64,000 bases of DNA. Source: a virus. The position numbers and the translations under genes are program-made. The notes beneath the pieces are model-generated. The model did not search any database and was not told the DNA's origin. It worked only from the letters and a program-made list of their open reading frames with translations. The stretch lies in IMG/VR virus record IMGVR_UViG_3300028844_002207, positions 21,830-85,829 of that record. The stretch is one strand, 5' to 3'. Of this stretch, positions 1-18,700 are shown in pieces (position 1 is the stretch's first letter; every line of letters starts with the position of its first letter).

Positions 1-2
1 CT

Positions 3-3000
3 TATCCGGGGTTTGGAAGTATTGTTAATGAAGGATTTGGATTAATAGGTGATGCATTAGGTTTAACAGATCCTGAATCTCCTTCACTTGATAAAGACGG
101 GGATCTTGATTTTTCTGAAGAGGCATGGGCACGTGCATTAAAAATTCCAACTAAGGATAAGTATATAAAACAGCAAACAGAATACAAACCAACTACGGCT
201 AAAGATAGTGATGTTCAGTACTATAAAATATCTGATGAGATATTTGATAAAGAAGGTTTCTTATTGGATTTCCAAGACATGGCTATTGGTGAGAAACAAA
301 CAGTAGATGGTTTATTACCATATATGAAAGAAGCTTATTTTGAGGCAACTGGACAAAGCGGTAGTAAGTTTATGGATACAGATCCACTTCAAAACTTTCA
401 GGTACAGGTTGGTTATGATAAAGAAAGAGATCAGAAGTATCTTTCTATGTATGATAAATATGATTTTAACAGCATAGCAAATGCAGGTATAAAGCCATAT
501 GAATTTTATGATAGGATTTACATACCTAAAGATTCTGATAAAAAAGAAAAAACAAAAAATAAGGTAGACTCAAATCTTTTATACAAGCAAGCTTTTGTTG
601 AATCTAATCTAGATCCAAAAGCCAAAAGCAATAAAGGATATATGGGTCTTGGTCAAATAGGAGATAGCCTTATAACAGATTATAAAAAAGCAAATAAGGT
701 AGATGAAATAGATCCTTATGACCCTGAACAAAATTATAAAGTTCAAGAGTGGTCAATGAATGAATTATACAACTCTTCATTTATTAATAAAGAAAATCAA
801 GATGATGATGTAAGATTAATTAAAACTTTAGCTGCATATAACTGGGGCAGAGGCAATACATTAGACTTATTAAATGAATTAAAAGAAGAGGGTGAAGATA
901 TATACAATGATGTAAAATGGGTATCTAGACTTCCACAGGAAACTCAAGATTACATTGATATGATTCTGTATGATAAAAATACAGAAGGCAGACCTAATGT
1001 ACAGGAGAACTTTTTAAAGACAACTACTGATGAAGCTTATGACTATTATAAGCAGTTATATAATTATAAAGATATAAATGACCAAGATAGTCTTCCGGTA
1101 AAACAATATGCAGGTCCCATTAGACAAGAAGAAGCAGAAGAAGAACAAAGTTTTTATCTTCCTGAAATGTGGCAACAAGATAATTATGTACAGGAACCAG
1201 TTACTCCTTATATGGGTCCTTTTAGACAAGCTGAGGAAAAGCCTAAACAAGAAGATGATAATCTGACAACTTATACAATTAAGTCAGGAGATAACCTGAC
1301 AAGAATAGCAGAACAATTTGGTACTTCTGTAGATGAAATTGCAAAGTTAAATAATATTGATAACCCTAGTCAAATAGATATCAATCAAGAATTAAAATTA
1401 CCTAAGTCTAAAACTAAATTTCTTAATTATGATATTAAGTCAGGAGATACATTAGGTAGGATAGCAACAAGATTTGGTGTTCCTCTTAGAAAAATTGTAG
1501 AAGCTAATAGTTCAATTAAAAACATTAATGAAATTTTTGCTGGTCAAGATATTGTTATACCTCAATCTAATTATGAGGAAGTAGAAGAAATTGAAGAAAC
1601 ATGGCAGGACGTTGATTTATTAGATGAAGACAGAAAGAATATTAATGATTCAGCTGATGAGGATATAATAAAGAAAGCTCAAATGGTTAATGATCCTAAT
1701 GGTCATTATGTTATAGTAAATAAAAAAACAAAGAGATTAGAAGTTTGGAGAGGTGGAAAGTCAATATTAGACTTTGAAGTTCTTACAGGTGCTAATAAAG
1801 GTGATGCTTTGACTGTAACAAAGATGTGGGATTTTAACCAAGATGGTAAGATAACAGATGAAGATAAAAGAAATGGTAAATGGATTCCTAACTGGAGTGC
1901 TGGAAACAAAAACACTGGTGCAGGTAAGTATTATATAAAAGAAAGTTATGCTGACTCACCAGATAAATATGGTGGTAAGGGAGTTCCTTCATTTAATTTA
2001 TTTACAGATGGTACTGACATAGATGTAGCTACTGCTATTCATGGCCCTACTTCTGGTAGAAAAGGTTTATTTGATGATGGAAATGTTGAAAACAATAGAG
2101 CAAGTAATGGTTGTATAAATGGTCAATGTACTGATTTACAAGCATTGTATGATCTAGGAATGCCTGCAGGTACAGCGGTATATGTATTACCAGAAGATGA
2201 TGGTAATAATTTTCAATGGGTTGATGGACAAGCTGTATTAAAAATGTCAGAGGATAATAGAGAAAAATATACTTCTAATTATATAGATTCTAAAGGTAAA
2301 GAGCAAACTCAACAAGGATCTAATTATTCAGTAAATACATTAAACTACCAACCTATACGTCCAGTGTTTGATCAACAATCTTTTGAAGAGGAAGTATATA
2401 ATGAAACGGGTACTCTAAAGTCCATTGGTAATTTTTTTACTTCAGACTCCTCAGATAAAGAAGAACAAGAAAACTCAACTAAACCATTTATAAATTCTTT
2501 AGTAAATAACAAAAAGAAAATAATGGTAGAGGCAGGTATACCTAGTGATGTATATAATGATATTGCTAGAATTGCTTTTGGTATTTATGGTAATGAATCT
2601 AATTTTGGTGATACACACAGTGCTGGTGGAAACTTTACAAGAGGTGTTACAAAATTTGTAGCTGATCAAAATAGAAAAGGTGACTTACCAATAGTTGGCT
2701 CAACTGATCTTTTACCTAAAGTTACTTCTTCACCTGATGTATTTAAAAAATATGATGGTTATAAAATAGATACATTAGATGGATTAACATCTCTTTCTCC
2801 TTTAATAGCTCTTGCTGTAAAAGATAGTTTGAAGACTGATCTTCCTGTTTATGAAAAAAGTGCAAAAGAAGATTATAACAGTGTTGGTTTAACTCAACTT
2901 AGATGGGATAATATAATAAAGGAAGATAAGAATTTACCAAAGGACAAAAAACAAATAAATATATTAAAGAAGTTTGGTATAACATCTAATAAAGATTTAT

Positions 3001-3404
3001 TAGATCCTGAAAAAGCAGCTATAGCAACTGTATTAAGATTAGCATTCTTAGCTAATAATAGAAAGGGTGTAGATAGAAATGATTTATTTAACACACTTCC
3101 TAAACACTGGGGAGGATCAAGTAAGGATGGTGGTAAAACATATACAGATAACGTTAAAAAACATGCTAAGTATTTAAAATTTCAACAAAAAGGAAAGTAT
3201 ATGCCAAACTATGCAGTAGGAGGAGAGAAAAAACAAATACAAATGTATAAAGATTATATAGATGGTGTCTATAATGGAACTGACAATGAGAGTAAAGCTA
3301 AAAGTTTATATGATAAATTAAATAGAAAGCATTATAAAGATGCAAAAGAGTTGGGTAATATGTCACCACCTAACTATATTTTGACTCATCTTTATCAAGC
3401 TTAA
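3..3404 (+). CDS. Virion-associated multi-domain peptidoglycan enzyme: SLT lytic transglycosylase + 2 LysM + YkuD (L,D-transpeptidase-like) + second lysozyme-like domain; 5'-partial
   Basis: The frame of track ORF 264..3404 is open from position 3 (YPGFGSIVNEG...), so the true start lies upstream of the window. SLT motifs AFVESN...KGYMGLGQI...LAAYNWG (~590-850); LysM repeats at ~1269-1403 and ~1428-1562; YkuD-like IHG...ASNGCIN (2040-2120); second GNESNFG...VGLTQL...DPEKAA...HWGG domain (~2550-3170). Confidence 0.85.
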   Translation, partial: YPGFGSIVNEGFGLIGDALGLTDPESPSLDKDGDLDFSEEAWARALKIPTKDKYIKQQTEYKPTTAKDSDVQYYKISDEIFDKEGFLLDFQDMAIGEKQTVDGLLPYMKEAYFEATGQSGSKFMDTDPLQNFQVQVGYDKERDQKYLSMYDKYDFNSIANAGIKPYEFYDRIYIPKDSDKKEKTKNKVDSNLLYKQAFVESNLDPKAKSNKGYMGLGQIGDSLITDYKKANKVDEIDPYDPEQNYKVQEWSMNELYNSSFINKENQDDDVRLIKTLAAYNWGRGNTLDLLNELKEEGEDIYNDVKWVSRLPQETQDYIDMILYDKNTEGRPNVQENFLKTTTDEAYDYYKQLYNYKDINDQDSLPVKQYAGPIRQEEAEEEQSFYLPEMWQQDNYVQEPVTPYMGPFRQAEEKPKQEDDNLTTYTIKSGDNLTRIAEQFGTSVDEIAKLNNIDNPSQIDINQELKLPKSKTKFLNYDIKSGDTLGRIATRFGVPLRKIVEANSSIKNINEIFAGQDIVIPQSNYEEVEEIEETWQDVDLLDEDRKNINDSADEDIIKKAQMVNDPNGHYVIVNKKTKRLEVWRGGKSILDFEVLTGANKGDALTVTKMWDFNQDGKITDEDKRNGKWIPNWSAGNKNTGAGKYYIKESYADSPDKYGGKGVPSFNLFTDGTDIDVATAIHGPTSGRKGLFDDGNVENNRASNGCINGQCTDLQALYDLGMPAGTAVYVLPEDDGNNFQWVDGQAVLKMSEDNREKYTSNYIDSKGKEQTQQGSNYSVNTLNYQPIRPVFDQQSFEEEVYNETGTLKSIGNFFTSDSSDKEEQENSTKPFINSLVNNKKKIMVEAGIPSDVYNDIARIAFGIYGNESNFGDTHSAGGNFTRGVTKFVADQNRKGDLPIVGSTDLLPKVTSSPDVFKKYDGYKIDTLDGLTSLSPLIALAVKDSLKTDLPVYEKSAKEDYNSVGLTQLRWDNIIKEDKNLPKDKKQINILKKFGITSNKDLLDPEKAAIATVLRLAFLANNRKGVDRNDLFNTLPKHWGGSSKDGGKTYTDNVKKHAKYLKFQQKGKYMPNYAVGGEKKQIQMYKDYIDGVYNGTDNESKAKSLYDKLNRKHYKDAKELGNMSPPNYILTHLYQA

Positions 3405-3434
3405 ACCCTAAAGATTAGTGAATCTCCTTAATTA

Positions 3435-3455
3435 TTTGTATATTAATAATATAAT
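3435..3455 (+). promoter_or_regulatory. Candidate late-promoter motif TGTATATTA(A/T)TA
   Basis: TTTGTATATTAATAATATATA just upstream of the GTG at 3465; near-identical motifs at 32414 and 36329. Confidence 0.45.
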
Positions 3456-3464
3456 ATTATCAAC

Positions 3465-6212
3465 GTGGATTTAAACAAAAAAAGTGTAAAACAACAAGGA
3501 GGATCAATGATTCCTCAACAACCTGGTCTGCAGCAACAACCTCAAGTTGATCCGCAAGTTATGCAGATAAGTGAAATGTTTACTGCAGCTGTTCAAGAAG
3601 GTCAGCAACCTCAAGAAGTATTGATGGGTTTAATGCAGCAAGAAGTTGATCAAAATATTATAGGTCAAGCTCTTATGCAGTTGGGTTATGAAGAAGAAGC
3701 AATTATAAGTTTGTTTGAAGATGTACAAAAACTACAACAACCACAAGAACCTAGTCCACAGCAAATTACAAATAATCCACAACAACTAGCAAGAGCAGAA
3801 GAAATACAACAAGAAGCTCCTGGTATGGATATGAATATAACATCTATTGATCAGGCTAAATCTGGTATAGAAATTAAACCAGAAAACAAGGGTAAGTTTA
3901 CAAGATGGGCTAAAGCAAGAGGTATGTCAGTATCTGAAGCTTATAACAAAGTTATGAGCAATACAGATAACTATCCTGCTTCAGTAGTTAAGATGGCTAA
4001 CTTTGCAAAGAATGCAGCTGGATGGAAAAAAGAAGAGGGTGGTGAATTTGAACCACACTTTATGTATAAAGGTGATAGAAAGATTAGAGCTAGAGATATG
4101 GCTACTCATCTTAGACTTAAAGAAGCAGGTTATAATCATGATGCACCTAAAGCAGCAGACGGAGTAGAAACAGGAGCAGTAGTAACATCTGAAGAGGGTA
4201 CAGATAATACAAAAATGATGTCTGATTTTTTAAATGCTTCTAAAAGTGAGGACGCAGTTAAAACTAAAAATAAAGGTTTAATAAGTAATCTAGAAGATGA
4301 AGGTATACTTGAGCCAGGACCAATGTATATTAATCCTGCTATTTTTAATGATGCAGAATTTAATTTAGGAAAAGCTGCAAACGTGGCTTTAACTGCATAT
4401 GAAGATATGTTTAGTGGTAAGGATAAAGATGGTGATGGTGTAAAGGATGGTAGCTTTAGAGACTGGCGTGGTAAGCATATTAATAACAAAATGCAAAAGA
4501 TGGCTAATGCCACTTATGACGTTAAGTTTGATACAAGTGATGAAAATAAAAATGCTGCAGCAACATGGTTTAAACAATTTCAAGTTGAAAATCCAGAACT
4601 AACTCAACAGAAAGATGCATTAGGAAATATTATAAAAACAGAAGCAGATAAAGTACTAGATGATATAAATGCCCCAAGTGCCGTAAAAAAAGTATCTGAT
4701 GATTTGCTAGAAAAGTGGCAAAGTGGATCAGCAGAAACAAAAGCATATATTGAATCTATATTAAAAAGGAAAGGACAAGAAATACCAACTGAATATAAAG
4801 TAGATCCAATGTCAGCTGGCGGTAAAGACCCAGGTGCTACTAGTAAAGATCCACAAGAAGTAGATTTAGATCCTAGCTTTGATATGAAATTACCAGAGTC
4901 TATTGAAAATAATGATCCTGGGTTTGATCAGTTTATACCAAAAGACTATGATGGTCCTTTAGATCCAGGGTTTAATAAAGGCGTTCCTAATTTTTCTGAC
5001 TATCAACAAATGTTAGTTAAGTATGGAGCTGAAATACCTAATATGCAAATGGCAGGTCCAGTAGCAAATCAAATGCTTTCTTTTCAAGAATGGGTTGCGC
5101 AAGATCCTGTTACAAGAGGTGTTGCTAATGGTCCACAATTGTATCAAGAATATGTAGCTGGGTTTAATAATCCTTTTAACCCAACTCCACCAGTAGCTCA
5201 AACAAATGATGTGCCTGCACAAAGATCAGCAGCAGATTTATTTACAGATATAAAGGGTCCTGAAGTTGATGCAAACTATGGTGGTGTAGGTGGATTTTTA
5301 GATAGAGCTTTAAATAGTACAGTTGCCACAGCATTTGGTGATTTATCAAACTTTGCTGTTGGTGCAGCAGATGTTGCTAATGATTGGTTTGATGAAAGAA
5401 ATAAAAAGAAAGCACAAGAAGAATTAAGAGGTGATTTAGTTGCAGATAATATATATGGAACTAAGACAGATGCCTTTAATAAAAGAGGTACGTTTGATAT
5501 TAATTCTGGTTTGATGGGTAGTGAAGGTGACGCAACAACAGGATTATATATGAGTAAAGAAGGTGGTGGTGTAAACAACCCTGGCTTCAAAGCATTACCT
5601 CCAGAAGCACAGCATAACATACTTAGTAATATGGCATATGGTGGAGCTAAAGGAGAAGAAGCATATTTAGCAAATAGGGATAGAGTTATTAAAAGAGAGT
5701 TATCTAAGTATCAAGATAAAGGTGAAACTAGGAAAGAGAGAAAAAATAGAATCAAAAACTATGATCATGAATATCTAGATGAATATATAGAATTATTTAA
5801 AAATAAAAACAAAAGTGATGTTACAGCTATAAAAGATATTATGTCTCAAATGGGAGTTACTCAAAATGATACATTATTTGTGGGAAATAGTAATAGCGTA
5901 AGCGGTGCCAAGATGTTTCCTCAGTTTAAATTACAGCAATATTTAGCATCACAAATTGATCCTGAAGCATATAATGCAGGTGAACAGGTTAATGTAAATC
6001 ATAAAAATAAAGCTCCTTATTATACTTCAGACCCGGATCCAGAAGATGGTAAATCATATAGCTTTAAAAATAAAACCTATTATGATGATAGTGATGGGTA
6101 TCTTCATTTGATTAAATCAAAAAAACAAAATGGAGGTGAACAAACTGTAGAAGTTGATTCAAGAATGTTAGCAAAACTAATTGCAGCTGGAGCTGACATA
6201 GAAAAATTATAA
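3465..6212 (+). CDS. Putative internal virion (cargo) protein, Q/P-rich N-terminus
   Basis: 915 aa ORF in the operon upstream of the virion RNAP; low-complexity segments and repeated xxxGG motifs; no enzyme motif recognised. Confidence 0.6.
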   Translation: MDLNKKSVKQQGGSMIPQQPGLQQQPQVDPQVMQISEMFTAAVQEGQQPQEVLMGLMQQEVDQNIIGQALMQLGYEEEAIISLFEDVQKLQQPQEPSPQQITNNPQQLARAEEIQQEAPGMDMNITSIDQAKSGIEIKPENKGKFTRWAKARGMSVSEAYNKVMSNTDNYPASVVKMANFAKNAAGWKKEEGGEFEPHFMYKGDRKIRARDMATHLRLKEAGYNHDAPKAADGVETGAVVTSEEGTDNTKMMSDFLNASKSEDAVKTKNKGLISNLEDEGILEPGPMYINPAIFNDAEFNLGKAANVALTAYEDMFSGKDKDGDGVKDGSFRDWRGKHINNKMQKMANATYDVKFDTSDENKNAAATWFKQFQVENPELTQQKDALGNIIKTEADKVLDDINAPSAVKKVSDDLLEKWQSGSAETKAYIESILKRKGQEIPTEYKVDPMSAGGKDPGATSKDPQEVDLDPSFDMKLPESIENNDPGFDQFIPKDYDGPLDPGFNKGVPNFSDYQQMLVKYGAEIPNMQMAGPVANQMLSFQEWVAQDPVTRGVANGPQLYQEYVAGFNNPFNPTPPVAQTNDVPAQRSAADLFTDIKGPEVDANYGGVGGFLDRALNSTVATAFGDLSNFAVGAADVANDWFDERNKKKAQEELRGDLVADNIYGTKTDAFNKRGTFDINSGLMGSEGDATTGLYMSKEGGGVNNPGFKALPPEAQHNILSNMAYGGAKGEEAYLANRDRVIKRELSKYQDKGETRKERKNRIKNYDHEYLDEYIELFKNKNKSDVTAIKDIMSQMGVTQNDTLFVGNSNSVSGAKMFPQFKLQQYLASQIDPEAYNAGEQVNVNHKNKAPYYTSDPDPEDGKSYSFKNKTYYDDSDGYLHLIKSKKQNGGEQTVEVDSRMLAKLIAAGADIEKL

Positions 6213-6214
6213 TT

Positions 6215-9166
6215 ATGGCAAAAATTAAAATAAACAAATTACCACAAGGTTTTAGCATCCGTAATGGAAAGGTTGTTGAAGATGCAATGTCTATGGAACA
6301 TGGTGGTATGGTAACAGGTGATCAATCTGACTACGGTTTGGTTACAACTCCACAAGCATATTATGGTAATACTAATTTTAATAATTCACGTGATGAATCT
6401 GTTAGATATAGTTTATCAAGTGTACCCAGAGAAGATGCTAATTTAGAAGCAGAGGGTGGAGAAACAGTTTTAACTGATTTAAATGATGACGGTACATTTG
6501 GTCTGTATGACATACAAGGACCAAGACACGGTAGTGGAGGTGTACCAATGTTTTTGCCAGAACAATCTTTTGTTTTTTCTGACACAAGAAAACTTAAGTT
6601 TACAAAAGATGAAATGAGTGAGTTTGGAGTAGGTGGAAGTAAAAAAACACCTGCTAAAATTTCTAAGAAGTTTGGGTTACAAGAGTATTATGGTGAATTA
6701 GATTCACAGTATGCAGATAAAATATCAGCTACAAGTGCAGAGCTTATGTTGAAGAAAAACATGAATGACTTATCAAAGCTTGCTTTTGTACAAGAAGCCA
6801 AAAAGGATTTTTCTGATGGTGTACCTTTAGCATCTCATCCATATTTAGTTTCTATAGGTGAAGACCCTATTGAGTTTACAGCTAAAGTAGAAGAGATATC
6901 AAGGAAAGAAGCAGAAGCTAAAGCTTTAGCAGCATTACCTATTGAGCAACAGCAACAAATAATGATGATGCAACAAATGATGGCTCAACAAGAACAGCAA
7001 GAAGGTATGCAACAACAGATGCCTCAGCAAGGAATGCCAGCACCTATGGAAGCATTTATGCCTCAACCAGGAGAGCCAGGGTTAGCAATGGAAAATAATG
7101 CTATGATGGGATCTATGGCACAGTATGGAACTGAGCTTGGAGACTTTTTAGTTAAAGCTGGTTATGGTAAAGAATTAGAAAGCTATCAAAGGAAAGGAGA
7201 AACTGCAAGAGATTACTATGAAAGAAAAAAAATTGGGTATCCTAAGAACATGAAAGATGCTACTTGGAATGGTAAAGCATGGTATCTAGAAGATGGTTCT
7301 GATCCAATACCCAAATCAGAATTAAGAAGACAAGCTCTTATTGCAATTCAAAGTGGTCAAGTGCCAGATGCATATAGACTCATGGAAGAAACTACTGAGA
7401 CAACTACTGAGACAGAAACAGATGCTCTAACAACAGATAAAACTACAACTGCAACTGACAAACAAGTAGAAACTGTGGTTAATACTAATGGTGCTAAAAA
7501 TCCTTATGCTGCTGGAAGTGAAAAAGCTAAACAGTATGATAAGTATATAGCAGATGGATATTCTCCTACAATAGTAAAGAAAGACGGTAAAAATAAAATA
7601 TCTTTTGTTAGAGGGCCTATTGATGGTAGAACTATGAAAGAGGCTACTGAAGTTCAGGTGTTTGATCAAAATAAAATATCTGGGGCTGGTGGTTTATCTG
7701 ATACTTATACTCCTGAAATAAGAACTCAACAAGAGTTAAATAATGATCCAGATGTAGGTGACGTAGCAACTTTTATAAGTGGTAAGTTTTCTGGTAATAA
7801 ATTGCCTGATACTCAGTCTAAAAATACAGATGGCTTTGGATATGGTTCAGATATGTTTTCTAGTAAAGAATCAGAAGAAGATTTTTATTACAGAAATCAG
7901 GCTGTTATAGATGCTTTAAAAGCAGATGGTATAGACTTCAAGTTTAATATGAAAATGAGTGATCCAAACTATGATGCAAACTGGAGAGGATTCCAAAATA
8001 AATATGAAGAAAAAAGAAAAGCATACTTTGATAAAAAAGGTGTTCAGTACATACCTTATTTCTTTACCGATGAAGTATTGGAGGAAAGACTTAAAAATGA
8101 TCCTGATACTTATGATAAAGATGGTGATGGCAAGTTAGATGATGAATGGAATAAAAGAAGGTTTGATGGTAAGAGAGGTGGTTATACTGTAAATGCACCT
8201 GGGTTTGATATGGACTATCAACCTGGTGATGAGCAGTTTATGGATTTACCAGATGATCCAGAAGAAAAGAAAAAAACACCACCAGTTAAACCTGACCCAG
8301 AAAAAGAGTGGTGGAAACAAGATGTTAATAACATACTTGCATTAAATGCTATTGATGATGAATTGTTCCTGCCTTGGGCTCCTCAACTAGAAGATCAAAA
8401 AATTGATTATGTATTAGATGATTATACAGGAAGAGTCAATGCAAATTTAGCAGCACAAAACACTATGGCAAATGCATTAGGTGCATATGGACCACAGGCA
8501 ATTGCACGTAGTAATATTCAAGGTAAAACTTTAGATGCTAATGCTAAAGCTATAAATCAAGTTAACCAGAACAATGTTAGAACTATGAATCAAGTTGCAA
8601 CAATGCAACCACAACTAGATATGAAAGTTGACATGGCTAACAATGCAACAAACAAACAATTATATGATGATACCACTGTAGCATTACAGAATGCTCAGAA
8701 TTTTAAAAATTGGAAAACTGGTAGATATAATGATTTATATAATGCTGGTATAACAAACGCAGCCAATACATATAATATGAACCAGTTGTATGATTATTAT
8801 AATGTTAACCCTTTAAAAGGTGGTGATGTTGAATTTGGTCCTAATGGTAAAAGATTGTTGAAAGATTCTCAAGGAGATCAAACTCAAGCAAATATAGAAA
8901 AGTGGCAAAGATTACAGGAGCTTGTTGGTAAAGATGATAAGGGTGTTCAAAGAGAAGTTACAAAAGATATGTGGGAAAGGATATATGGTCCTGACTCAAA
9001 TACTACTAATACAAGATCAAATGCACAACAAGAGCTAATCAATCAAGGTGCACCTGTAGGTTATGATGCAGCAAGAGGAATGTTGAATCAATCACAAAAA
9101 GGAAAAGAAATAAAAAGACTATCAAAGTGGGCAGTGCCGTTTTACAGTGGTAAGATGGGAATGTAA
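6215..9166 (+). CDS. Putative internal virion (cargo/ejection) protein
   Basis: 983 aa ORF; ANLEAEGGE and GPRHGSGGV segments resemble those of crAss-like virion proteins as I recall them; Q/M-rich linker; 2 nt from the previous stop. Confidence 0.6.
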   Translation: MAKIKINKLPQGFSIRNGKVVEDAMSMEHGGMVTGDQSDYGLVTTPQAYYGNTNFNNSRDESVRYSLSSVPREDANLEAEGGETVLTDLNDDGTFGLYDIQGPRHGSGGVPMFLPEQSFVFSDTRKLKFTKDEMSEFGVGGSKKTPAKISKKFGLQEYYGELDSQYADKISATSAELMLKKNMNDLSKLAFVQEAKKDFSDGVPLASHPYLVSIGEDPIEFTAKVEEISRKEAEAKALAALPIEQQQQIMMMQQMMAQQEQQEGMQQQMPQQGMPAPMEAFMPQPGEPGLAMENNAMMGSMAQYGTELGDFLVKAGYGKELESYQRKGETARDYYERKKIGYPKNMKDATWNGKAWYLEDGSDPIPKSELRRQALIAIQSGQVPDAYRLMEETTETTTETETDALTTDKTTTATDKQVETVVNTNGAKNPYAAGSEKAKQYDKYIADGYSPTIVKKDGKNKISFVRGPIDGRTMKEATEVQVFDQNKISGAGGLSDTYTPEIRTQQELNNDPDVGDVATFISGKFSGNKLPDTQSKNTDGFGYGSDMFSSKESEEDFYYRNQAVIDALKADGIDFKFNMKMSDPNYDANWRGFQNKYEEKRKAYFDKKGVQYIPYFFTDEVLEERLKNDPDTYDKDGDGKLDDEWNKRRFDGKRGGYTVNAPGFDMDYQPGDEQFMDLPDDPEEKKKTPPVKPDPEKEWWKQDVNNILALNAIDDELFLPWAPQLEDQKIDYVLDDYTGRVNANLAAQNTMANALGAYGPQAIARSNIQGKTLDANAKAINQVNQNNVRTMNQVATMQPQLDMKVDMANNATNKQLYDDTTVALQNAQNFKNWKTGRYNDLYNAGITNAANTYNMNQLYDYYNVNPLKGGDVEFGPNGKRLLKDSQGDQTQANIEKWQRLQELVGKDDKGVQREVTKDMWERIYGPDSNTTNTRSNAQQELINQGAPVGYDAARGMLNQSQKGKEIKRLSKWAVPFYSGKMGM

Positions 9167-9225
9167 ACCTAAAGGGTTTATACAAAACACTTTGTAAACT
9201 TATATAATTATATTAATTTTACATT

Positions 9226-12200
9226 ATGGCAACATACGTTAAAGGAGCAGATACTTACTTACCAGACATTAAACCGTTTACACCGGATTATAAATTTCTG
9301 TCTGCCGTTCTACAAACTAGAACGGATAAGTATGATGCCAATTATAAAGCTACAAATGACTTATACAATAAAGTTGTTTATGCTGACTTATCAAGAGAGG
9401 ATACTAAAGCGAGAAGAGATCAGTACGCTGAACAAATAGCTCCACAAATAGAACAAATATCAGGATTAGATTTATCACTAGCTTCTAATGTAGATGCAGC
9501 TAAAGGTGTGTTTGCACCATTCTATGATGATGATATTACTGTCAAAGATATGGTCTTTACCTCAAGGTTTAGAGACCAATCTCAAAGAGCACAGAACTTA
9601 TTAAACTCTCCTGACCAAACAGTACAAGAAAAATATTGGGATGTTGGTGTAAGAGGTATGCAATACAAAATGGATGAATTTATTAATTCTGATCCAGATC
9701 AAGCATTAGGCATGGCTCTTCCTGATTATGTACCAAAAGCTAACTTATTTAAAATGAGTCAGCAAATGTTGGCTAACATGGATCCCCCATTAAAAATGAA
9801 GATGGATAGATTTGCCAAGCAACCAAATCCAAACTTTAATAAGAATTTACCAGAGTCACGTGAGAACAGAAAAGAAATAACTAATACTGATTGGATTATT
9901 ACTGAACAAAATGGTTCTTTAGTTACTGGTGCAGCGTTACAACAAATAAGAAACACACTATTAGATAATCCATCTGTACAGAAATCTTATCAAATGGAGG
10001 CTTATGTTTCAGGAATGGACTGGGCCACTCAAGCTGTTGAAAGTGGAGCTGCTGCATCTCTTAGTAATGGTCAAGAACTATGGGCTTCAGAAACCATCAA
10101 AAGAATTGAAGAAAGAAATATAGCAGAATTAAATAATGATGTTGAAACTTTACGTAAGTTAGAGACTTCTGCAGTAACATGGTCTAATTATAAAGGTCAA
10201 AATGGTCTTGTTCCTGGTAGTGAACTAGATAAATTAAATCAAGAACAACTATCTGATATTGAAAAATATAAATTAGATATAGAAGCAAAAAAACAAATTG
10301 CTCAAGAAGTAAGTAGACCTACTCCAACAAATAAAAATCTGATTAATAAAGCATATAATTTATATATGCAAAGTAATATTATGTCAGATATGAAAGAATC
10401 CGCACAGGCTTGGAGTGCTAGAGATTACATTTATGAAATGAATCCAAATCAGTTTGCTGTTGATGAAAAGAAGTCTATGTGGAATATGGCTGAAATTAGA
10501 GCACGTGCAGCTAATCAACTTAATCTTGCAGCATATAATGCAAACAGAAGAGATGCTAATACAATGTTGGATAAAGGTTATCAATATGATGCTGAGGGTA
10601 ATCTTGTTCCATTACCTTGGGCTGAGGGTATGGGTGTCAATGGTGGTGGTGCCGCTAATGATTTATTTAGTGCATTAAGTAGTCCTGAATTTAGTATAAG
10701 TGATGATAATACAACAACATTTGCGGTGGATGAAGATGGAGAGCCAACAGCAAATTCAGATATTATTGGTGATACACAAAAAGCTTATGCTGAACATGTA
10801 CAAAGCGTTGGTAAAGATGAGATAAATGCATTATTAGGAACTGCTACACAACCCGGTATGCTACAATTAATGAATCCAAAGGGGAACACGGCAGATGAAA
10901 ATCAAACATATACTATAAATATTCCTGGTAGAGGAGAAGTAAATGGATCTATTGAGGACCTAAGACGTATGTTATCTGCTACTGTAAATAATGATGGTAC
11001 AGGAGGATTAAAGTATTTAGATGGTATAACAGAACTTTATAATACTAATAAAGATAATTTTGTTAATACTAGACAACAAACAAAAGATGATATAAGAATA
11101 ACTCAGGGTGATGATGCAGACATGTCTACTAGGTATGATGGATTATATAATAGAATGGTTGGGCCAAATGGAATTGAAACAAAGAGAAAGGCAGGTGATG
11201 TTTTTATAAGTAAGGCATATGAAGTTTATAATGAAGCCTTTGAAAATAATGATATTCTAAAAGCAACTACAACAGGATCAACTTCTAATAAAAACATAGG
11301 GGGTATGCTTGAAGCAGGTATGCCAGGTAAGTTTGATCAGAACGGTATACCATATACAAAAGAAGAACATTTTCAAGAAGCTTTAAGAAGACTTAACGCT
11401 GGTGAATTAACTAATACTGATCAAGACTGGACAGTAGATGGTAGAGCCAATAAAGATTACAGGGTAACAGAAACGATGGGTAATTGGGATATGAATAAGG
11501 TTAGAGCAGCTTTTAATAGCAGCACACCTTTATTTTATGTAGATAGTCCAGATCAAGATGGAACAATGTTCACAACTGAAGATACTGGTATACCTGCAGT
11601 ACAAGCAATAAGAGGTGCTAGACCTATAGATATACCTAAACAAGCAAACAGAATTTCAAAGAGTGAACTTAGAGAAGAAGCAGGGAAAGTTTATGATGCT
11701 TTAACTACAAATTTAAATGCAGCTCTAACAGATAGAATGGATGCAGGTACTAATTCTGCTACATTTGAATCAATTAAGTTTGGTATTGATGGTGGCTATG
11801 CTGATGTAACAAATAATATTACTTTTGAATATGGATTTAATCCATTAGCTCCAGATTCAGATGCTTATAATGAAGTAAAAAGCATGGCGCTTCAGATAGG
11901 TTCATTAAAGAAATCAGGTACACCGTATGGTATTGGTATAGGTAACTTAACTAATGAAGACCAGTTGGTGCAGAAAGATCCATTAGCAATGAAGGTATTT
12001 AATCTTTTAATGAAAGATGCACAAACCTGGGTTGGTAATCCTAAGAGATCCAACTCAGCTGCAATAGCACCTATATTTGATCTTGCATATAAATCAGTTT
12101 ATGATATTGCTTCTAAAGGAGATAAAACTCATGCTGGTTTTGAAATAAGTAATATGGCAGAGTGGTTAGCATCAAAAGTAAAAGGATCTTCAGCAGATGT

Positions 12201-12693
12201 TGCAAAACAGTTTGGTGCATTAACTACAGATGATATTGCTAGATTAAAAGGATTAGGAGAAAACAATGATGGTACAGGTATATTTATAGTATTTCCACAG
12301 TCAGATGATATAAACATTAAAGCAAGAAAGAATGATTATTTTTCTTCAACAGAAATAGATATTCTTGGTGGTGACAATAGTAGTTACGCTGAATACACAG
12401 TTCCTAATGATAATGGTATAACACCTACAGCTACATATAGAATTGCAAAAAATGGTACAGGTGATTATGATTTAATAACAGAAATCAATAGGTATAACCC
12501 TTACCCAACAGACAAAGATCTACAAGCTAATTGGAGTGAGTATACAACATCAACAAATACTCATAAAATGGATTTCTCACAAGGCTTGCCAGGAATTGAT
12601 TTGCAAGTAAATCAAGTACAACAAACACTAGAAGAAATTAGAAGAAACAATCAGGCTCTTAGAAAAAAGGATCAGGCAATACAAGGTAAATAA
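9226..12693 (+). CDS. Putative internal virion/ejection protein
   Basis: 1155 aa ORF immediately upstream of the vRNAP polyprotein; predicted helical N-terminus; no catalytic motif recognised. Confidence 0.6.
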   Translation: MATYVKGADTYLPDIKPFTPDYKFLSAVLQTRTDKYDANYKATNDLYNKVVYADLSREDTKARRDQYAEQIAPQIEQISGLDLSLASNVDAAKGVFAPFYDDDITVKDMVFTSRFRDQSQRAQNLLNSPDQTVQEKYWDVGVRGMQYKMDEFINSDPDQALGMALPDYVPKANLFKMSQQMLANMDPPLKMKMDRFAKQPNPNFNKNLPESRENRKEITNTDWIITEQNGSLVTGAALQQIRNTLLDNPSVQKSYQMEAYVSGMDWATQAVESGAAASLSNGQELWASETIKRIEERNIAELNNDVETLRKLETSAVTWSNYKGQNGLVPGSELDKLNQEQLSDIEKYKLDIEAKKQIAQEVSRPTPTNKNLINKAYNLYMQSNIMSDMKESAQAWSARDYIYEMNPNQFAVDEKKSMWNMAEIRARAANQLNLAAYNANRRDANTMLDKGYQYDAEGNLVPLPWAEGMGVNGGGAANDLFSALSSPEFSISDDNTTTFAVDEDGEPTANSDIIGDTQKAYAEHVQSVGKDEINALLGTATQPGMLQLMNPKGNTADENQTYTINIPGRGEVNGSIEDLRRMLSATVNNDGTGGLKYLDGITELYNTNKDNFVNTRQQTKDDIRITQGDDADMSTRYDGLYNRMVGPNGIETKRKAGDVFISKAYEVYNEAFENNDILKATTTGSTSNKNIGGMLEAGMPGKFDQNGIPYTKEEHFQEALRRLNAGELTNTDQDWTVDGRANKDYRVTETMGNWDMNKVRAAFNSSTPLFYVDSPDQDGTMFTTEDTGIPAVQAIRGARPIDIPKQANRISKSELREEAGKVYDALTTNLNAALTDRMDAGTNSATFESIKFGIDGGYADVTNNITFEYGFNPLAPDSDAYNEVKSMALQIGSLKKSGTPYGIGIGNLTNEDQLVQKDPLAMKVFNLLMKDAQTWVGNPKRSNSAAIAPIFDLAYKSVYDIASKGDKTHAGFEISNMAEWLASKVKGSSADVAKQFGALTTDDIARLKGLGENNDGTGIFIVFPQSDDINIKARKNDYFSSTEIDILGGDNSSYAEYTVPNDNGITPTATYRIAKNGTGDYDLITEINRYNPYPTDKDLQANWSEYTTSTNTHKMDFSQGLPGIDLQVNQVQQTLEEIRRNNQALRKKDQAIQGK

Positions 12694-12707: not shown

Positions 12708-15700
12708 ATGGAAAACGAATCTAATAAGCCATTAGCGCAAGAGATTAAGAATCAAGAAAGACCTGCCCCAAGTATAATACCTGAAGGGCAGTTCCGCTTT
12801 GAGCCAATTGCAGAAATGTTTGACTCTCCAGAGGAAAACTTTAATGACTATCTATTAAGTAGTGATTTAGCAGCTGATGATGTTTCAGGTGTAAATGAAT
12901 ACAAAGCTGAAATAGATAAGTATGGTATAGGAGCTATGGCCTCATTAGGAGTAGCTGTACCTAGTTTTGCATCTGATACATATAACCCAAGATCTCAAGA
13001 TCAACCTGCAGATAATGATTTTTCCCTGATTCAAAAAGCATTAACTTTAGAAAAAAAACCAATTTCAGAAACTAGAATGGCTCCTATATTTTCAGGAATG
13101 AGACAGGGTCAATTTGAGAGATATTATAATCATCCTGAGTTTGATAAGTTAGGATTTTCTCCATACTCTAATATGGAGAATTATTATAATGCAAATTCTA
13201 CTATATGGGATGATATGACTAGAATGAGAGGTCAATGGATGTCTCTTGCTGGTACAGGATTAAATTCTGTATATGGATCTTTGTTTAGTGGTGGAGATTA
13301 TCTTGCTCCTGATTTTGAAGCTGCAACTGAGTTTGAAGACACTATGGGTATTTCATCATCTACAAGAGGTGGTGGCCTTGCTTTCTTCAATAATTTAGCA
13401 GCTAACTCTGCATATACATTTGGTATACTAAGTTCTATTGCTATTGAAGAGATTATACTTGCTGGTGCATCAGGATTATCAGGAGGAGCTTTAGCTGCAC
13501 CTGCAGCTGTAAAGACTGCTTCAAATATTGGTAAAGGTGGGAAAGCTTTATATAGTTTTACTAAGCTATTTGATAGAACAAGAAAGATACTACAAAAAGC
13601 AAAAGAACTTGAGACAGCAAGAGATTTTTATAATGCTGCTGTTACAGGTGGAAAAATGACTCTTAATACATTAGGTAAAGGCTTTACACCAAATACTCTG
13701 AAGGCATTCCAAAATATGAAGACAGCACAAAATGCTGGACAAAACATGACCAACCTAGCTAAAATGGGTACTGGCTTTGGAGGTTTCTATAGAGATCTTA
13801 GAGCAGTAAACTTAGCAATGGCTGAAAGTAAGCTGGAGTCAGGGATGGTATATAATAAAGTTATGAAGCAAGGTCTTACAGATGCTAATAATTTTAGTGG
13901 AGGTCAAGGTATTACTGATAATAGAGATGTTAGTGCTGCAGCTAATCAAGCAGCATTCAAAACTATGTTAGGTAATGCACCTCTTATATATGCTAGTAAC
14001 TGGTTTGTTATTGGTAATGCAATGGGTGGTTTTCAAAGAGGTATACAAAGATCTCTTGGTGCTACGTTTCAAAAGGGGATTAATAAAAACATTGTTAATA
14101 CCGCAGGTAAAAAAGTTGTAAATGCTGCAGGTGAAGTTATCAAAAGCCCATTCAAGTATATAGGTGGTGGATTTAAAAATACTGTAGCAAAAGTTAAAGC
14201 CGGTGGATTTAAAGGACTTGCTGGTAGTGGGGGTATAGCAATGCTTGATTACTTTGCTGCTAATGTTGCAGAAGGTATACAAGAGATTGGTCAAGAAGCT
14301 ATCTCAGCTGCAACTGTAGGATACTATACAGAAATATTAAATAACCCTGCGCAAGGGGGAGAAGCTCTTAAGAATCAAATGATACTATCAGCAATGGGTG
14401 ATCAGTTTTCATCACAAGGAGCAGGTGTATTCTTATCTGGTTTTTTAATGGGTGGTTTAGTAAGTGGTCCTCAAAAATTATTCTTTCAAGGTGTTCCTTC
14501 TATATATAATTATGGTTTGCAGGAAGCTGGAATTGGTTTAGCAAGTAAGTCTCAGAAAGAAGCATATACTGAGTATAAGACTAATAGAGAAACAATGATT
14601 AATAAAGTTGTTGAGTCTTATAACAAATCATGGGATTCACAAGCTATAGATCCATCTAGTTTATTTGACTTAAACAGATTGAACTTTATGGTTCAAAAAG
14701 AAGCTGCTGAGAATATGAGGAGTGCTCTTGACATGTTTAATTTTGTTGACAATGCAGATAGATCAAAGTTCCAACAATATTATACAATGTTTGCAGGTAA
14801 TGGTTCACAGCATTTTAAAGATCAGTTAAAAGGATTTTTAGAATTAAGTGATGTAGAATTAGCTCAGGCATTTCCTGGAGTATCTAATAAAGATAAGAAG
14901 GATGGTAAGTTAAGAGAACGTATTAATAATATGCTTGTAGGTATTGATAAGATGGAAGAGTCTTATAATCAAAACAAGGACAAATTTAAAAACCCATTTA
15001 ACAAAAACAAGTTTAATCCTAAGACACAGCAAAGAGAATACATTAAGGAAATGCTTAATGAAGAAGCATATGAACATGTACGTTATTTATACATGTTTAC
15101 AAATGATGGATTTACTAGAGCATTAGAAAGAGCAGATAGTATCTATAATAAATTACAATCTGATCCTTTGTTTGATAAAATGTCTGCAAATGATGTAACT
15201 AATCTGCTTGATGAGAAATCAATTCAGAATGAGATAGACATGCTTAACCTTGAAGTGATTGCAACTGAAGGTGCAACTGAAGGTATTGGGGAATCTAACA
15301 AAACCAAAAGAGAAAAAATTAAAAGATTAAAAGCTATTCAAAAGATCATTTCTGATCCACAAAATAGATTTAAGAATGGAACCTTTAAAAGAAACAAACT
15401 TTTAAAAGGAAAGCTTAGAAATGAGTTTAGAAACTATATAAGATTTATGGCATCTTCTGCTGGTTCATTTGCGGATGAAGCAAAAATTGATGCTGCCTTA
15501 GAACAAATTGTTGACTACGGTGCATTAAAAGGAAGAGCACGTGTATATGATAAAGCTATTCAGTACATGCAAAATCCAGAAAAGTTTTCTGAGATTCAAC
15601 AAAGACAGTATGAAGTAAACAAAGAGATATATAATCAACGTGCTAAGATAACAGAAGAAATGTTAAAGCAGTATGTAGATATAGTTGAGGCAAATGAACT

Positions 15701-18700
15701 AATAAATCAGTTAGGTAAGTTGGGTGTTTATCCAGCAATAGCACAAACAGAAATGTTTTTGAAGACTGGTAATGCAGCTTTCTTGACAGATTTTTATGAT
15801 GATAATGGTAAAATACAACCTGAAATTCATACAGTAGCATTTGGTCAAGTCCAAAGATTGTTAACTACATATAAAGAAACTAGAGCAGACAATACTAAAG
15901 AGGATGATGCACCACAAACCGAAGAAGAAATTGCAATTGAAGAAACTGAAGAAACAAGATCTGCACTTGATGTACTTTTAGAAAAGGCAGGTATAGATAT
16001 AAAAATTGATGTAAGCACTAATAGTCCTTTATTAGTTAAGGCATTGGAGAGAGCCTATAAAAATTATAGAGCTAAGCAAGCAAGATTAGGCTTACCTATT
16101 TTAGATAGTACTGCGTGGATGAGTTCTGCTGAAGCAGTTAACATTAGAAATGTTGTTAATGCAATTAAAAAAGTATGGGCATCAGGAAAATCAGAGGTAG
16201 GAGTAGAAGGCACACTAGAATTTAATAATCCTCTTGGAACAGATGTAATAAAAGAAGATGTAGGATTAGAAGAGTTTTTACTGGACCCTGAAGTATTAAT
16301 TAATAATCCAGTTATAACATCTATATTAAACCAATCAGGAGTTGATATGGCTGATGTAGTTGAGATTGCAGATGTAAAGTTAAAAAAAGGTCAAGCTCTA
16401 GAAAACACACCACAAAGAAAATTCTATAAAGGCGGTGTTACTGCAGATATATATAAAATATCTGTAGTAGATAATCAGACTGGAGAAATTGTAAAGATGT
16501 ACAAGTTTTTAGATAAAAAAGGCAATGAACTTTCAGATGATATTATTGAGTTTTTAGATACCAACTTTAAATCTGTTCAAGGAGTTTTCTTAGCAGACCA
16601 AGGTAAAATAGCTAAGAATGCTTTAGATGCACTAAATGCAAACCTTGTAGATTCATCAACTACTTTTGATTTTGATGGAGTAACAGGATTAACATATGGT
16701 CAAGTTATATATAAAGACGGTGTAAAATATATTGTTGTTCAAGATCCACGCTTTTCTAAAAAGTATGGTGCAAACCAAAAACTTAAAGTAATCAAAGAGT
16801 CTGATAACACAGGACCTTTTGCAGAAAGAAAGTTTTTGTATATACCGCAAGGAGAATTTAAAGGTAGATTTACTTTAGAAGAAACTACATTTAATTTAAT
16901 TCCAGATACGGTAACAAAAATTCAAACTAATGATTTGACTACCCTTTACCCTCATGTTAATTACACTGAAGGTGGTTCATCATCTGATAATGCCAAAGCA
17001 AGAGAAAGATATAATGCTATTCTTAGTATGTTATCTCCAGAAGAAATAGCCGGTTTACAGTTGGTTGTATCTCTTGATTCAAGAGGAGGAACTAATACTG
17101 GATCTTACACTGCTAAAAATAGAGAAGGTAAAGTATATAAAGAAGCTAATCCATTAATAGATAGATTAGTAAGTAAGTACGTTGTTGGTATACGTATAGC
17201 TAATCCTGCATTACGAGAAACTATTAATGCAAAGTTAGCTGAGATGGGTATTGAACCATCTAATAGTCCGGAAGGAGTATTTGCTTATTTAAATAATGAA
17301 TCATTTTTAATTAGAGATCAACGTACTGGCTCCCCTATAGATCCAAGATCTATGACTGCGGAACAAGCAAGCAATGTTATTCTAGCAAAAAAAGGTTTAA
17401 ATAAAGAACAAAAAGCAGAAGCTCTTGAACAAGTACATAGAGCATTTGCATTGAATGCATTAGTTGTTCAAACATTTGATAATTTAAATGTGGGAGATGA
17501 GGTTGTTTACTTTATGGCAGACTCAAAAGATATACCTTTTAGTATAAACTTAAATCTTAAAGGAGGAAGAGTTGCATATGCTAAAGCAAGAGAAAGAGTA
17601 TATCCTCTACCAATGGATGCGTTGTTATATGATACTGCAGATGAAGCGGGTAACTTATTTATTTTTGATTTAAAATATGATAAAGAAACTGGTGAAAGAA
17701 CTTATGACTTTACTACAAATTTAAAAGGTAAAGAAAGAGATGCTTTGGAAGATGCAATTGAAACACAATTAAAAAAACAAAATCAATGGGATAATCTATT
17801 GGATGCTGGTAAAGGCACAGATAGATATCTTGCTATGGTAAGATTGCCAAATGGAACATATGCAAAAGTAAATTTAAAACCGGTTGAATATACTAATACT
17901 GAATTAGAAGAACTATATGTAGATGTAGTTGAGGCAGCTAAAAGAATAGGTGCTATTAAGGATTCAGAAAAAAGCATGGAGGAAGCTGCAAAGTATAATC
18001 AAGAATTATCAGAAAGATTATTTTTAAGTAGCAGACCTGGTAACTTGATTGAACTTAATGTGGGTCCTGATGGGTCTATCTTTATTTCTTTAGATAATAA
18101 AGGCAGTAAAACAAGCATGAACGTTGGTTTAAAGCCTGAAGAAGTTAATGCAAAAGATCTATCAGCTAAAGATGTAATTCAAACTTTACTTACAAATTAT
18201 AATACTGATCCGGCTGTAGAAAAATTAAGTGCAGATTTAAAAAATAAAAACTTCAGAAAGTCTTTTGCTCAAGGTGTTGCACCTCAAGAAATATATGATA
18301 ATAGTACTACAGAGGTATTACCAGAAGTAGTACAAAATCAAACAATAGAAGTTTCAGCTGAGTCAGATGCTATACAACTATCACGTGATATAGCGTACAT
18401 ACCTAATGCAACTAGAAGTGATGAGATAGAGTTGAAATCAGCAATGGGTAGAGAAAGACCTACAGCTGAAGAAGCTGATGAGTCTGTATCTGATATGGAA
18501 GATGCTGAATTTGAAGAAATGGTTGACAGAGTTGATAGTAATAACTTTGGAGACTATCAAAAAAATCTTGATCATATTGTAAATGCAATACTGAGAGGTA
18601 TTGAGCTAAGTCCACGTGAACAAGAGTTAATGAAAAATGATGTCTTCCGTCAATCAGTTACTTATGCTGTTGCAGTTCAAGGAGGACCTGGTGCATTGGC

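Follow-up and report, generated by a model that had tools for sequence, protein, structure and literature searches.

A putative cargo protein of a marine crAss-like phage joins an L,D-transpeptidase-fold domain to a lysozyme-like domain

Why would a phage protein with two glycan-cutting domains also carry a YkuD domain, the catalytic fold of the L,D-transpeptidases? The question is raised by the left end of a 64,000-nt stretch of viral DNA (hereafter the window; bases 21830-85829 of the 90,577-bp IMG/VR virus record IMGVR_UViG_3300028844_002207, CheckV completeness 79%). The initial annotation of the window described there an open reading frame (ORF) of >1130 amino acids (aa) at the head of a virion-cargo operon. 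It read the product as a virion-delivered enzyme with two transglycosylase-like domains, two LysM repeats, and a YkuD domain. We find that this ORF, the target of our analysis, encodes a large modular protein of a marine crAss-like phage that is probably injected along with the phage DNA. As to its role, we favor, with somewhat better than even confidence, the reading that this podovirus packs it as its first cargo (ejection) protein and that it breaches peptidoglycan with a hydrolytic YkuD step.

By reading upstream in the record, we recovered the 5′ end that the window lacks and with it the full gene of 1,766 codons. The ATG lies 1,896 nt upstream of window base 1, the frame enters the window at base 3, and the stop codon occupies window positions 3402-3404. 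The ATG overlaps the stop codon of a 2,043-aa upstream ORF as TAATG. The ORF of the initial annotation is therefore real and its length is corrected to 1,766 aa, but its place as the first gene does not stand, since the 2,043-aa ORF precedes it. Residue numbers below refer to the full product (P0002), in which the position equals that in the window-encoded protein plus 633. The product has neither a signal peptide nor a membrane-spanning segment (best 19-residue Kyte-Doolittle mean 1.15). Its cysteines number six, four in a zinc ribbon and two in the YkuD domain. The features of the target in the window are as follows:

3..3404, + strand: window share of the target ORF, residues 634-1766 plus stop (gene at genome 19933-25233; L003:4934-10234)
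543..893, + strand: SLT family-1 lytic transglycosylase domain, residues 814-930 (Pfam PF01464, 53.8-57.4 bits)
1272..1403, + strand: LysM repeat 1, residues 1057-1100 (Pfam PF01476; PDB LysM matches, e.g., 4b8v)
1422..1553, + strand: LysM repeat 2, residues about 1107-1150 (PF01476), opening the mobile LysM-YkuD-lysozyme-like block
1704..2186, + strand: YkuD / L,D-transpeptidase-fold catalytic domain, residues 1201-1361 (PF03734 envelope; folded domain in the model about 1185-1412)
1830..1865, + strand: EF-hand-type 12-residue loop D-x-N-x-D-G-x-I-x-x-x-D, residues 1243-1254, read from the sequence and inserted in the YkuD domain
2040..2042, + strand: catalytic His1313 (IHG), invariant in A1, an alignment of 38 diverse copies of region 1185-1766; His in 185 of 190 aligned domains
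2103..2129, + strand: S-N-G-C-I-N-G-Q-C, with Cys1337 at nt 2112-2114, Asn at C+2, and Cys1342 at nt 2127-2129
2358..3188, + strand: lysozyme-like / lytic-transglycosylase-like domain, residues about 1419-1695 (fold matches; no Pfam family)
3210..3401, + strand: conserved C-terminal tail, residues 1703-1766, following a near-invariant G-G-E and common to members without the YkuD cassette

The YkuD domain is recognized by both profile and fold. PF03734 matches the target with 39.4-40.4 bits (cut-off 23.4) over profile positions 2-146 of 146. The AlphaFold (AF2) model of residues 1185-1766, built from A1, has a mean predicted local distance difference test score (pLDDT) of 79 and a predicted template modeling score (pTM) of 0.65, with pLDDT about 80-94 in the YkuD part. 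When this model was compared with the PDB by Foldseek, the top entries were solely of the L,D-transpeptidase fold: Ldtfm, Bacillus subtilis YkuD, Pgp2, Csd6, Bd1075, and LdtMt2 (probability 1.0, E about 1e-5 to 1e-3, including 1zat, 1y7m, 4xzz, and 6xj7). VIA, which is independent of Foldseek, aligned model residues 1-228 to 4lpq with Z 12.8 and a root-mean-square deviation (rmsd) of 2.8 Å over 123 residues. Further Z scores were 12.1 for Ldtfm and LdtMt2, 11.8 for Csd6, 10.9 for Pgp2, and 9.9 for Bd1075, with lower values for DpaA (8.4) and Tlde1a (6.6); the main matches span Z 10-12.8, with rmsd 2.1-2.8 Å over 110-139 residues. The YkuD-like domain proposed in the initial annotation is thus borne out, and its 1700-2190 segment adopts a YkuD fold in the model.

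The catalytic motif is present in a variant form. The HG at 2040 and the SNGCIN at 2103-2120 that had been read from the window lie at exactly these positions. Every one of the 231 YkuD domains in the family has the catalytic Cys, which like His1313 is also invariant in A1. The residue at C+2 is Asn in 182 of them, Arg in 40, and Gly in nine, and the position before G-C holds Asn in 186 domains but His in just seven. In the profile of the phage domains, n-R-a-s-n-G-C-I-N aligns with R-G-S-H-G-C-I-N of Ldtfm, which contains the nucleophile Cys442; in the entry for the Ldtfm C442S mutant, the residue aligned to the phage Cys is Ser. The published YkuD motif is H-X-X14-17-[S/T]-H-G-C-h-[N/R] (PMC9638812). 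The target reads H-X-X19-S-N-G-C-I-N and so departs from the strict form in its spacing of 19 and in the Asn before G-C, while keeping the [S/T], the G-C, the hydrophobic residue, and the N/R. The phage YkuD family therefore carries a variant L,D-transpeptidase motif.

Two further features of the domain stand beside the motif. The EF-hand-type loop pattern occurs in 88 of 234 family YkuD domains, and some homologs have a PG_binding_1-like insert at the same site. The loop may make the folding or activation of the domain dependent on Ca2+ once it has been ejected into the periplasm, and calcium might switch YkuD on when the unfolded cargo arrives there. The second cysteine, Cys1342, is five residues past Cys1337 (window 2127-2129) and is kept in 178 of the 231 domains; a redox latch on the nucleophile Cys1337 is conceivable.

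The remaining wall-directed modules flank the YkuD domain on both sides. The SLT domain scores well above the curated PF01464 cut-off of 21.3 bits (the value of 57.4 bits comes from the scan of the phage's own genome). It contains F-V-E-S at nt 594-605 with the catalytic Glu833 at nt 600-602, as the initial annotation had placed it, together with GLGQ at 645-656 and AYNWG at 834-848, so that profile and E-S, G-L-x-Q, and A-Y-N-x-G motifs are all present. This part also matches phrog_342, annotated as "internal virion protein with endolysin domain." The two LysM repeats named earlier are confirmed by Pfam, both copies together scoring 99-101 bits with PF01476. We do not regard the Pfam matches as chance similarities, since the curated cut-offs are exceeded, the catalytic residues are near-invariant in 231-249 homologous domains, and the fold is borne out.

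The C-terminal lysozyme-like domain is recognizable at the level of fold. With model residues about 235-511, VIA gave MltF (5aa1) at Z 8.3 (135 aa, rmsd 3.8 Å), the fungal muramidase 8b2e at 7.4, MltC at 6.9, MltE at 6.7, phiKZ gp144 at 5.6, and Slt70 at 5.3. More than 25 further lysozyme or transglycosylase entries followed, including Tse3 and several endolysins, with moderate Z values and no rival fold. The domain has G-N-E-S at nt 2589-2600, with Glu1498 at nt 2595-2597, and G-L-T-Q at nt 2886-2897. Glu1498 is kept in 248 of 248 domains and G-x-T-Q in about 100%; the Glu-Ser and G-x-T-Q are reminiscent of E-S and G-L-x-Q in family-1 transglycosylases. No Pfam family matched the domain at E ≤ 10 beyond noise, and the family profile found no PDB sequence. 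Since there is no Pfam or PDB sequence relative, the assignment rests on the moderate fold scores and the invariant Glu-Ser and G-x-T-Q motifs; on these terms the second lysozyme-like domain suggested from the NES at ~2595 holds.

The YkuD and lysozyme-like domains travel together. A word-seeded search returned 232 relatives of the target, all metagenomic and including Tara Oceans samples (<0.22 μm fraction in one source label). BLAST mapping across them shows that residues about 1-95 and the last ~60 residues are common to nearly all members, and residues 181-231, which hold the CxxC...CxxC zinc ribbon, often are as well; the middle varies. Within this variable middle, the block LysM2-YkuD-lysozyme-like (query 1109-1695) always moves as a single piece, standing before or after SLT depending on the member. 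In IMG/VR, 46 distinct loci carry the YkuD block, on contigs of up to 122 kb. We compared the lysozyme-like profile with 1.84 billion cluster representatives and obtained 800 matches at E ≤ 1e-3, counted as clusters at 50% identity, 140 of them at E ≤ 1e-30. Among the 135 new representatives listed, 119 also have YkuD, directly upstream in 117. Twelve of the 16 YkuD-less exceptions are truncated gene calls, since they start inside the lysozyme-like domain. The two domains thus form a near-obligate cassette (117 of ~123 evaluable representatives), and this fusion suggests coupled action.

Other members place different modules on the same frame: ART-PolyVal (PF18760) in homologs P0053, P0069, P0086, and P0091; SET in P0109, P0110, P0115, and P0118; GH24 and chitinase-like modules in P0084; and PG_binding_1. 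Since the same head and tail bear such different payloads in related phages, the cargo slot behaves as a general effector carrier. A YDKLNR-type motif is found within the last 60 aa in 96 of 103 full-length cassette proteins. Among 50,697 GenBank phage records, tblastn with the YkuD-lysozyme-like block and with residues 1-260 gave no match; when window 1-12000 was compared with GenBank phages by megablast and the whole protein by tblastn, the only matches were to LysM.

The case for delivery in the virion comes from gene order. In the phage's own genome, the genes preceding the target are, in order, CrAss_Ring_2 (63.9 bits), CrAss_Ring_1 (32.9 bits), and the 2,043-aa ORF. The neighbors on the two sides of the target are:

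L002:13802-19933, upstream of the window: 2,043-aa ORF in muzzle position (two weak colinear BLASTP segments to crAss001 gp44, E 7e-4 and 5e-3)
3465..12693, + strand: three large ORFs of 915, 983, and 1,155 aa, within the cargo block and separating the target from the RNA polymerase
12708..26558, + strand: 4,616-aa protein with the crAss-type virion RNA polymerase catalytic region (RIPTQ, ADFDID; tblastn)

The 4,616-aa protein is 24-27% identical (tblastn, E to 3e-14) to RNA polymerase subunits of gut crAss-like phages. The three large ORFs at 3465-12693 have no Pfam or PHROG match; in their place, two related contigs have ORFs of ~1,009, 925, and 1,137 aa. Two Tara Oceans / ENA contigs that encode a 39%-identical relative of the target repeat the whole arrangement: Ring_2, Ring_1, ~2,100 aa, target, three proteins of ~1,000 aa, and ~4,750 aa. 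In crAss001, the cargo protein C1, gp45, follows the muzzle gene, is detected in virions by mass spectrometry, and lies partly in the tail barrel; it has been proposed to be ejected first, with its N-terminus ahead (PMC10172136). The target occupies the same slot, with the ring and muzzle genes ahead of it and the virion RNA polymerase behind. The two differ in content: A transmembrane helix is predicted in gp45 but not in the target, and wall-enzyme domains number three in the target and none in gp45.

A protein with wall-binding and wall-cutting modules, no export signal, and a place between tail-tip and cargo genes is best read as an ejected protein that meets the wall from the outside, as T7 gp16 does. 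On this model the target would travel inside the virion and leave it before the DNA, with the head (residues about 1-95) and tail (about 1703-1766) serving in packaging and docking in the phage tail or capsid. The LysM pair would bind glycan in the periplasm, where the SLT and cryptic lysozyme-like domains would cut glycan strands. YkuD would attack the bond at the L-center of meso-diaminopimelate in the stem peptide, via a thioester on Cys1337. Together these activities would breach the wall locally and let the ejectosome and the DNA through. The YkuD outcome is most likely hydrolytic, by analogy, whether as an L,D-carboxypeptidase, a 3-3 endopeptidase, or a protein-peptidoglycan amidase. We favor hydrolysis because the same fold hydrolyzes in Csd6/Pgp2, DpaA, and Tlde1a and because a breach needs cutting. 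Both DpaA (PMC10653827) and the type VI secretion system toxin Tlde1a (PMC9638812) are examples of hydrolytic or offensive use of this fold.

Several observations weigh against this reading, at the level of both delivery and chemistry. The 2,043-aa ORF in muzzle position has no match to Pfam crAss_MUZ and, judged by its sequence, would be either a very divergent or a different tail-tip protein. The target itself matches gp45 only at BLASTP E 0.27 and has no crAss_CARG1 (PF25725) match at E ≤ 0.05, although gp45, our positive control, scores 222 bits with that family. Since it resembles neither gp45 nor crAss_CARG1 in sequence, the target is a positional analog of gp45 and not a homolog. We infer virion delivery from synteny. 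The 90.6-kb record, itself 79% complete, has no GH24, Amidase_2, or Peptidase_M15_4 match (the three families tried), and its sole SLT match is the target. With no other endolysin-type gene there, the record leaves room for a lysis role. As to chemistry, the transpeptidase and carboxypeptidase structural matches are tied within 1 Z unit. Nor does the sequence favor hydrolysis over transpeptidation, since C+2 is Asn or Arg as in Ldtfm, LdtMt2, and the Escherichia coli Ldts. In the amidase DpaA, C+2 is Ala, Asn or Arg being the transpeptidase-type residue (PMC10653827). Asn or Arg at this position speaks against a DpaA-like active site in the phage YkuD but does not decide between the two chemistries.

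These points bear most directly on the question of whether YkuD is a genuine transpeptidase that edits the wall, either priming stem peptides for the lysozyme-like domain by local 3-3 cross-linking, D-amino-acid exchange, or trimming, or re-cross-linking around the channel against lysis from without. We consider this unlikely, although it is the alternative that survives best. The C+2 residue suits it (PMC10653827), B. subtilis YkuD itself has LysM ahead of its catalytic domain, and in Salmonella LdtD primes peptidoglycan for the muramidase TtsA (PMC12729407). That YkuD and the lysozyme-like domain are almost never found apart would fit sequential action on one substrate, but two hydrolases attacking glycan and peptide together would be no less expected to be permanently fused. 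The motif also speaks against an ordinary transpeptidase: In 186 of 231 domains Asn stands in place of the His of S-H-G-C, and the spacing from His to Ser, at 19, exceeds the canonical 14-17. In a narrower version, to which we give still less credence, YkuD would first edit stem peptides at the entry site, by converting cross-links, trimming, or exchange, and so make the sole substrate that the fused glycan cutter accepts, keeping the hole strictly local. Such an edit-then-cut scheme would be, by analogy, the phage counterpart of the Salmonella LdtD/TtsA logic.

It is improbable that the target is mainly a giant endolysin acting from within at the end of infection. It is the only recognizable peptidoglycan hydrolase in the 90.6 kb and the only SLT match, and several of its PHROG matches are labeled "endolysin"; these matches, however, cover the SLT or LysM parts only, and a lysis cassette may lie in the missing part of the record. 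The length of 1,766 aa, the position inside the tail/cargo/virion RNA polymerase block in every relative examined, and the conserved head and tail modules unrelated to wall enzymes all speak for a cargo protein instead. The start-stop overlap with the gene in muzzle position suggests translational coupling and points the same way.

We give marginally less weight again to YkuD as a covalent anchor, which would hold the ejectosome to the wall during DNA passage, either through its thioester with a stem peptide or by moving the stem onto an amine in a phage protein. The invariant catalytic Cys is compatible with this, E. coli LdtA-C attach proteins to peptidoglycan by the same chemistry (PMC12729407), and the target sits where a periplasm-spanning conduit is expected (PMC10172136); the idea is nonetheless speculative, with no phage precedent and no dedicated acceptor residue in evidence. 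Least probable is a catalytically dead wall-binding module, for although the motif departs from the canonical form (Asn for His in S-H-G-C, longer spacing), the Cys (231/231), the His (185/190), and the G-C-[IV]-N core, which persists at identities as low as 32-38%, show a pattern of conservation that indicates selection for catalysis.

The part of the target upstream of the window is less readily interpreted. We folded the N-terminal 810 residues from a 47-row alignment and obtained a mean pLDDT of 51.5, with about 25-88, 112-175, and 480-560 moderately confident; a VIA-wide search with this model gave nothing above Z 6.2, the matches being unrelated and helical. The zinc ribbon CxxC...CxxC lies at residues 190-225, and a further module is seen at 245-560. 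This module includes HEIGH (residues 332-336), in a region where H-E-[IV]-[GS]-H-S-x-D-R is kept in ~10 homologs that have the module; the model there has pLDDT <50 and no Pfam family matches. A metallopeptidase is possible but unsupported. An ESM-Atlas feature search with residues 240-640 gave scores ≤0.85, to be taken as a lead only, including a polyvalent-protein LPD23 cluster at 0.80.

We also note a recurrent junction motif, G-G-x-(x)-[IL]-P-K-A-Q, which occurs twice in the target, at residues 219-227 and 566-574 (L003 about 5588-5614 and 6629-6655), and a near-invariant G-G-E that precedes the C-terminal tail (window 3213-3227). The G-G junction motifs sit exactly at the module boundaries of the domain swaps among homologs. 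They could act as cleavage sites for a protease, as flexible hinges, or as joints for recombination.

In kind, the finding is a virion-associated peptidoglycan hydrolase or polyvalent cargo protein, a kind already known. YkuD in phage lytic proteins is rare, not unknown: PhaLP contains 10 entries with YkuD, compared with amidases and lysozymes in the thousands (PMC8310338), in agreement with the initial annotation's view that the domain is unusual among phage lysins, and a survey of the gut phageome mentions one YkuD domain (PMC13284279). In the literature we found no description of YkuD in a crassvirus cargo protein or of a YkuD-lysozyme-like cassette. What is new here is the modular family, in which the enzymatic middle is shuffled between a conserved head and tail, and the near-obligate cassette of YkuD and lysozyme-like domains. 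The data add a large YkuD subfamily that is restricted to phages and has a variant motif and, fixed to it, an undescribed lysozyme-like family of 800 clusters at 50% identity, none of these clusters having a sequence match in Pfam or the PDB.

How podoviruses with large protein cargos cross peptidoglycan is poorly known. The crAss001 cargo proteins have no assigned enzymatic role (PMC10172136), and the N4 ejection proteins are said to lack an activity that degrades the wall (PMC13434306). In the marine crAss-like lineage studied here, an explicit carrier of wall enzymes takes up the first cargo slot, which thereby gains a testable function. The YkuD and lysozyme-like domains are both small, soluble units that might provide an L,D-specific tool enzyme for peptidoglycan.

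Among known systems, the overall architecture recalls the polyvalent proteins of phages and conjugative elements, reportedly described by Iyer et al. in 2017 along with the Pfam ART-PolyVal and LPD families. Like these, the target is a giant modular protein with exchangeable enzymatic domains on the same head and tail; it differs in having wall-directed modules and an HExxH region only, with no match to a polyvalent-specific Pfam family. With the T7 gp16-type internal virion (ejection) proteins, whose SLT domain is N-terminal, and with phi29 gp13, a bifunctional virion-associated peptidoglycan hydrolase, the target shares the plan of a large virion-delivered wall breacher with a lytic transglycosylase and the combination of a glycan cutter with a peptide-directed enzyme. 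Its peptide-directed module, however, is YkuD and not M23, CHAP, or NlpC/P60; it has two glycan-cutting domains plus LysM, other head and tail modules, and no homology to these proteins outside SLT.

The YkuD part itself resembles B. subtilis YkuD and Enterococcus faecium Ldtfm, with which it shares the LysM-YkuD order (B. subtilis YkuD), the fold (1y7m, 1zat; 6fj1 at Z 12.1), and a G-C-I-N core identical to that of Ldtfm. It is set apart from both by S-N-G-C, the spacing of 19, the EF-hand-type loop, the embedding in a cargo protein, and the fusion to a lysozyme-like domain. The L,D-carboxypeptidases Csd6, Pgp2, and Bd1075, the Lpp-peptidoglycan amidase DpaA, and Tlde1a have the same fold, a likeness that is structural, with no specific sequence relationship shown. 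DpaA, which has a single-entrance site, differs in its Ala at C+2 (PMC10653827), a position where the phage family retains Asn or Arg. Tlde1a, finally, is a precedent for the delivery of a YkuD fold into a rival's periplasm to damage the wall (PMC9638812).

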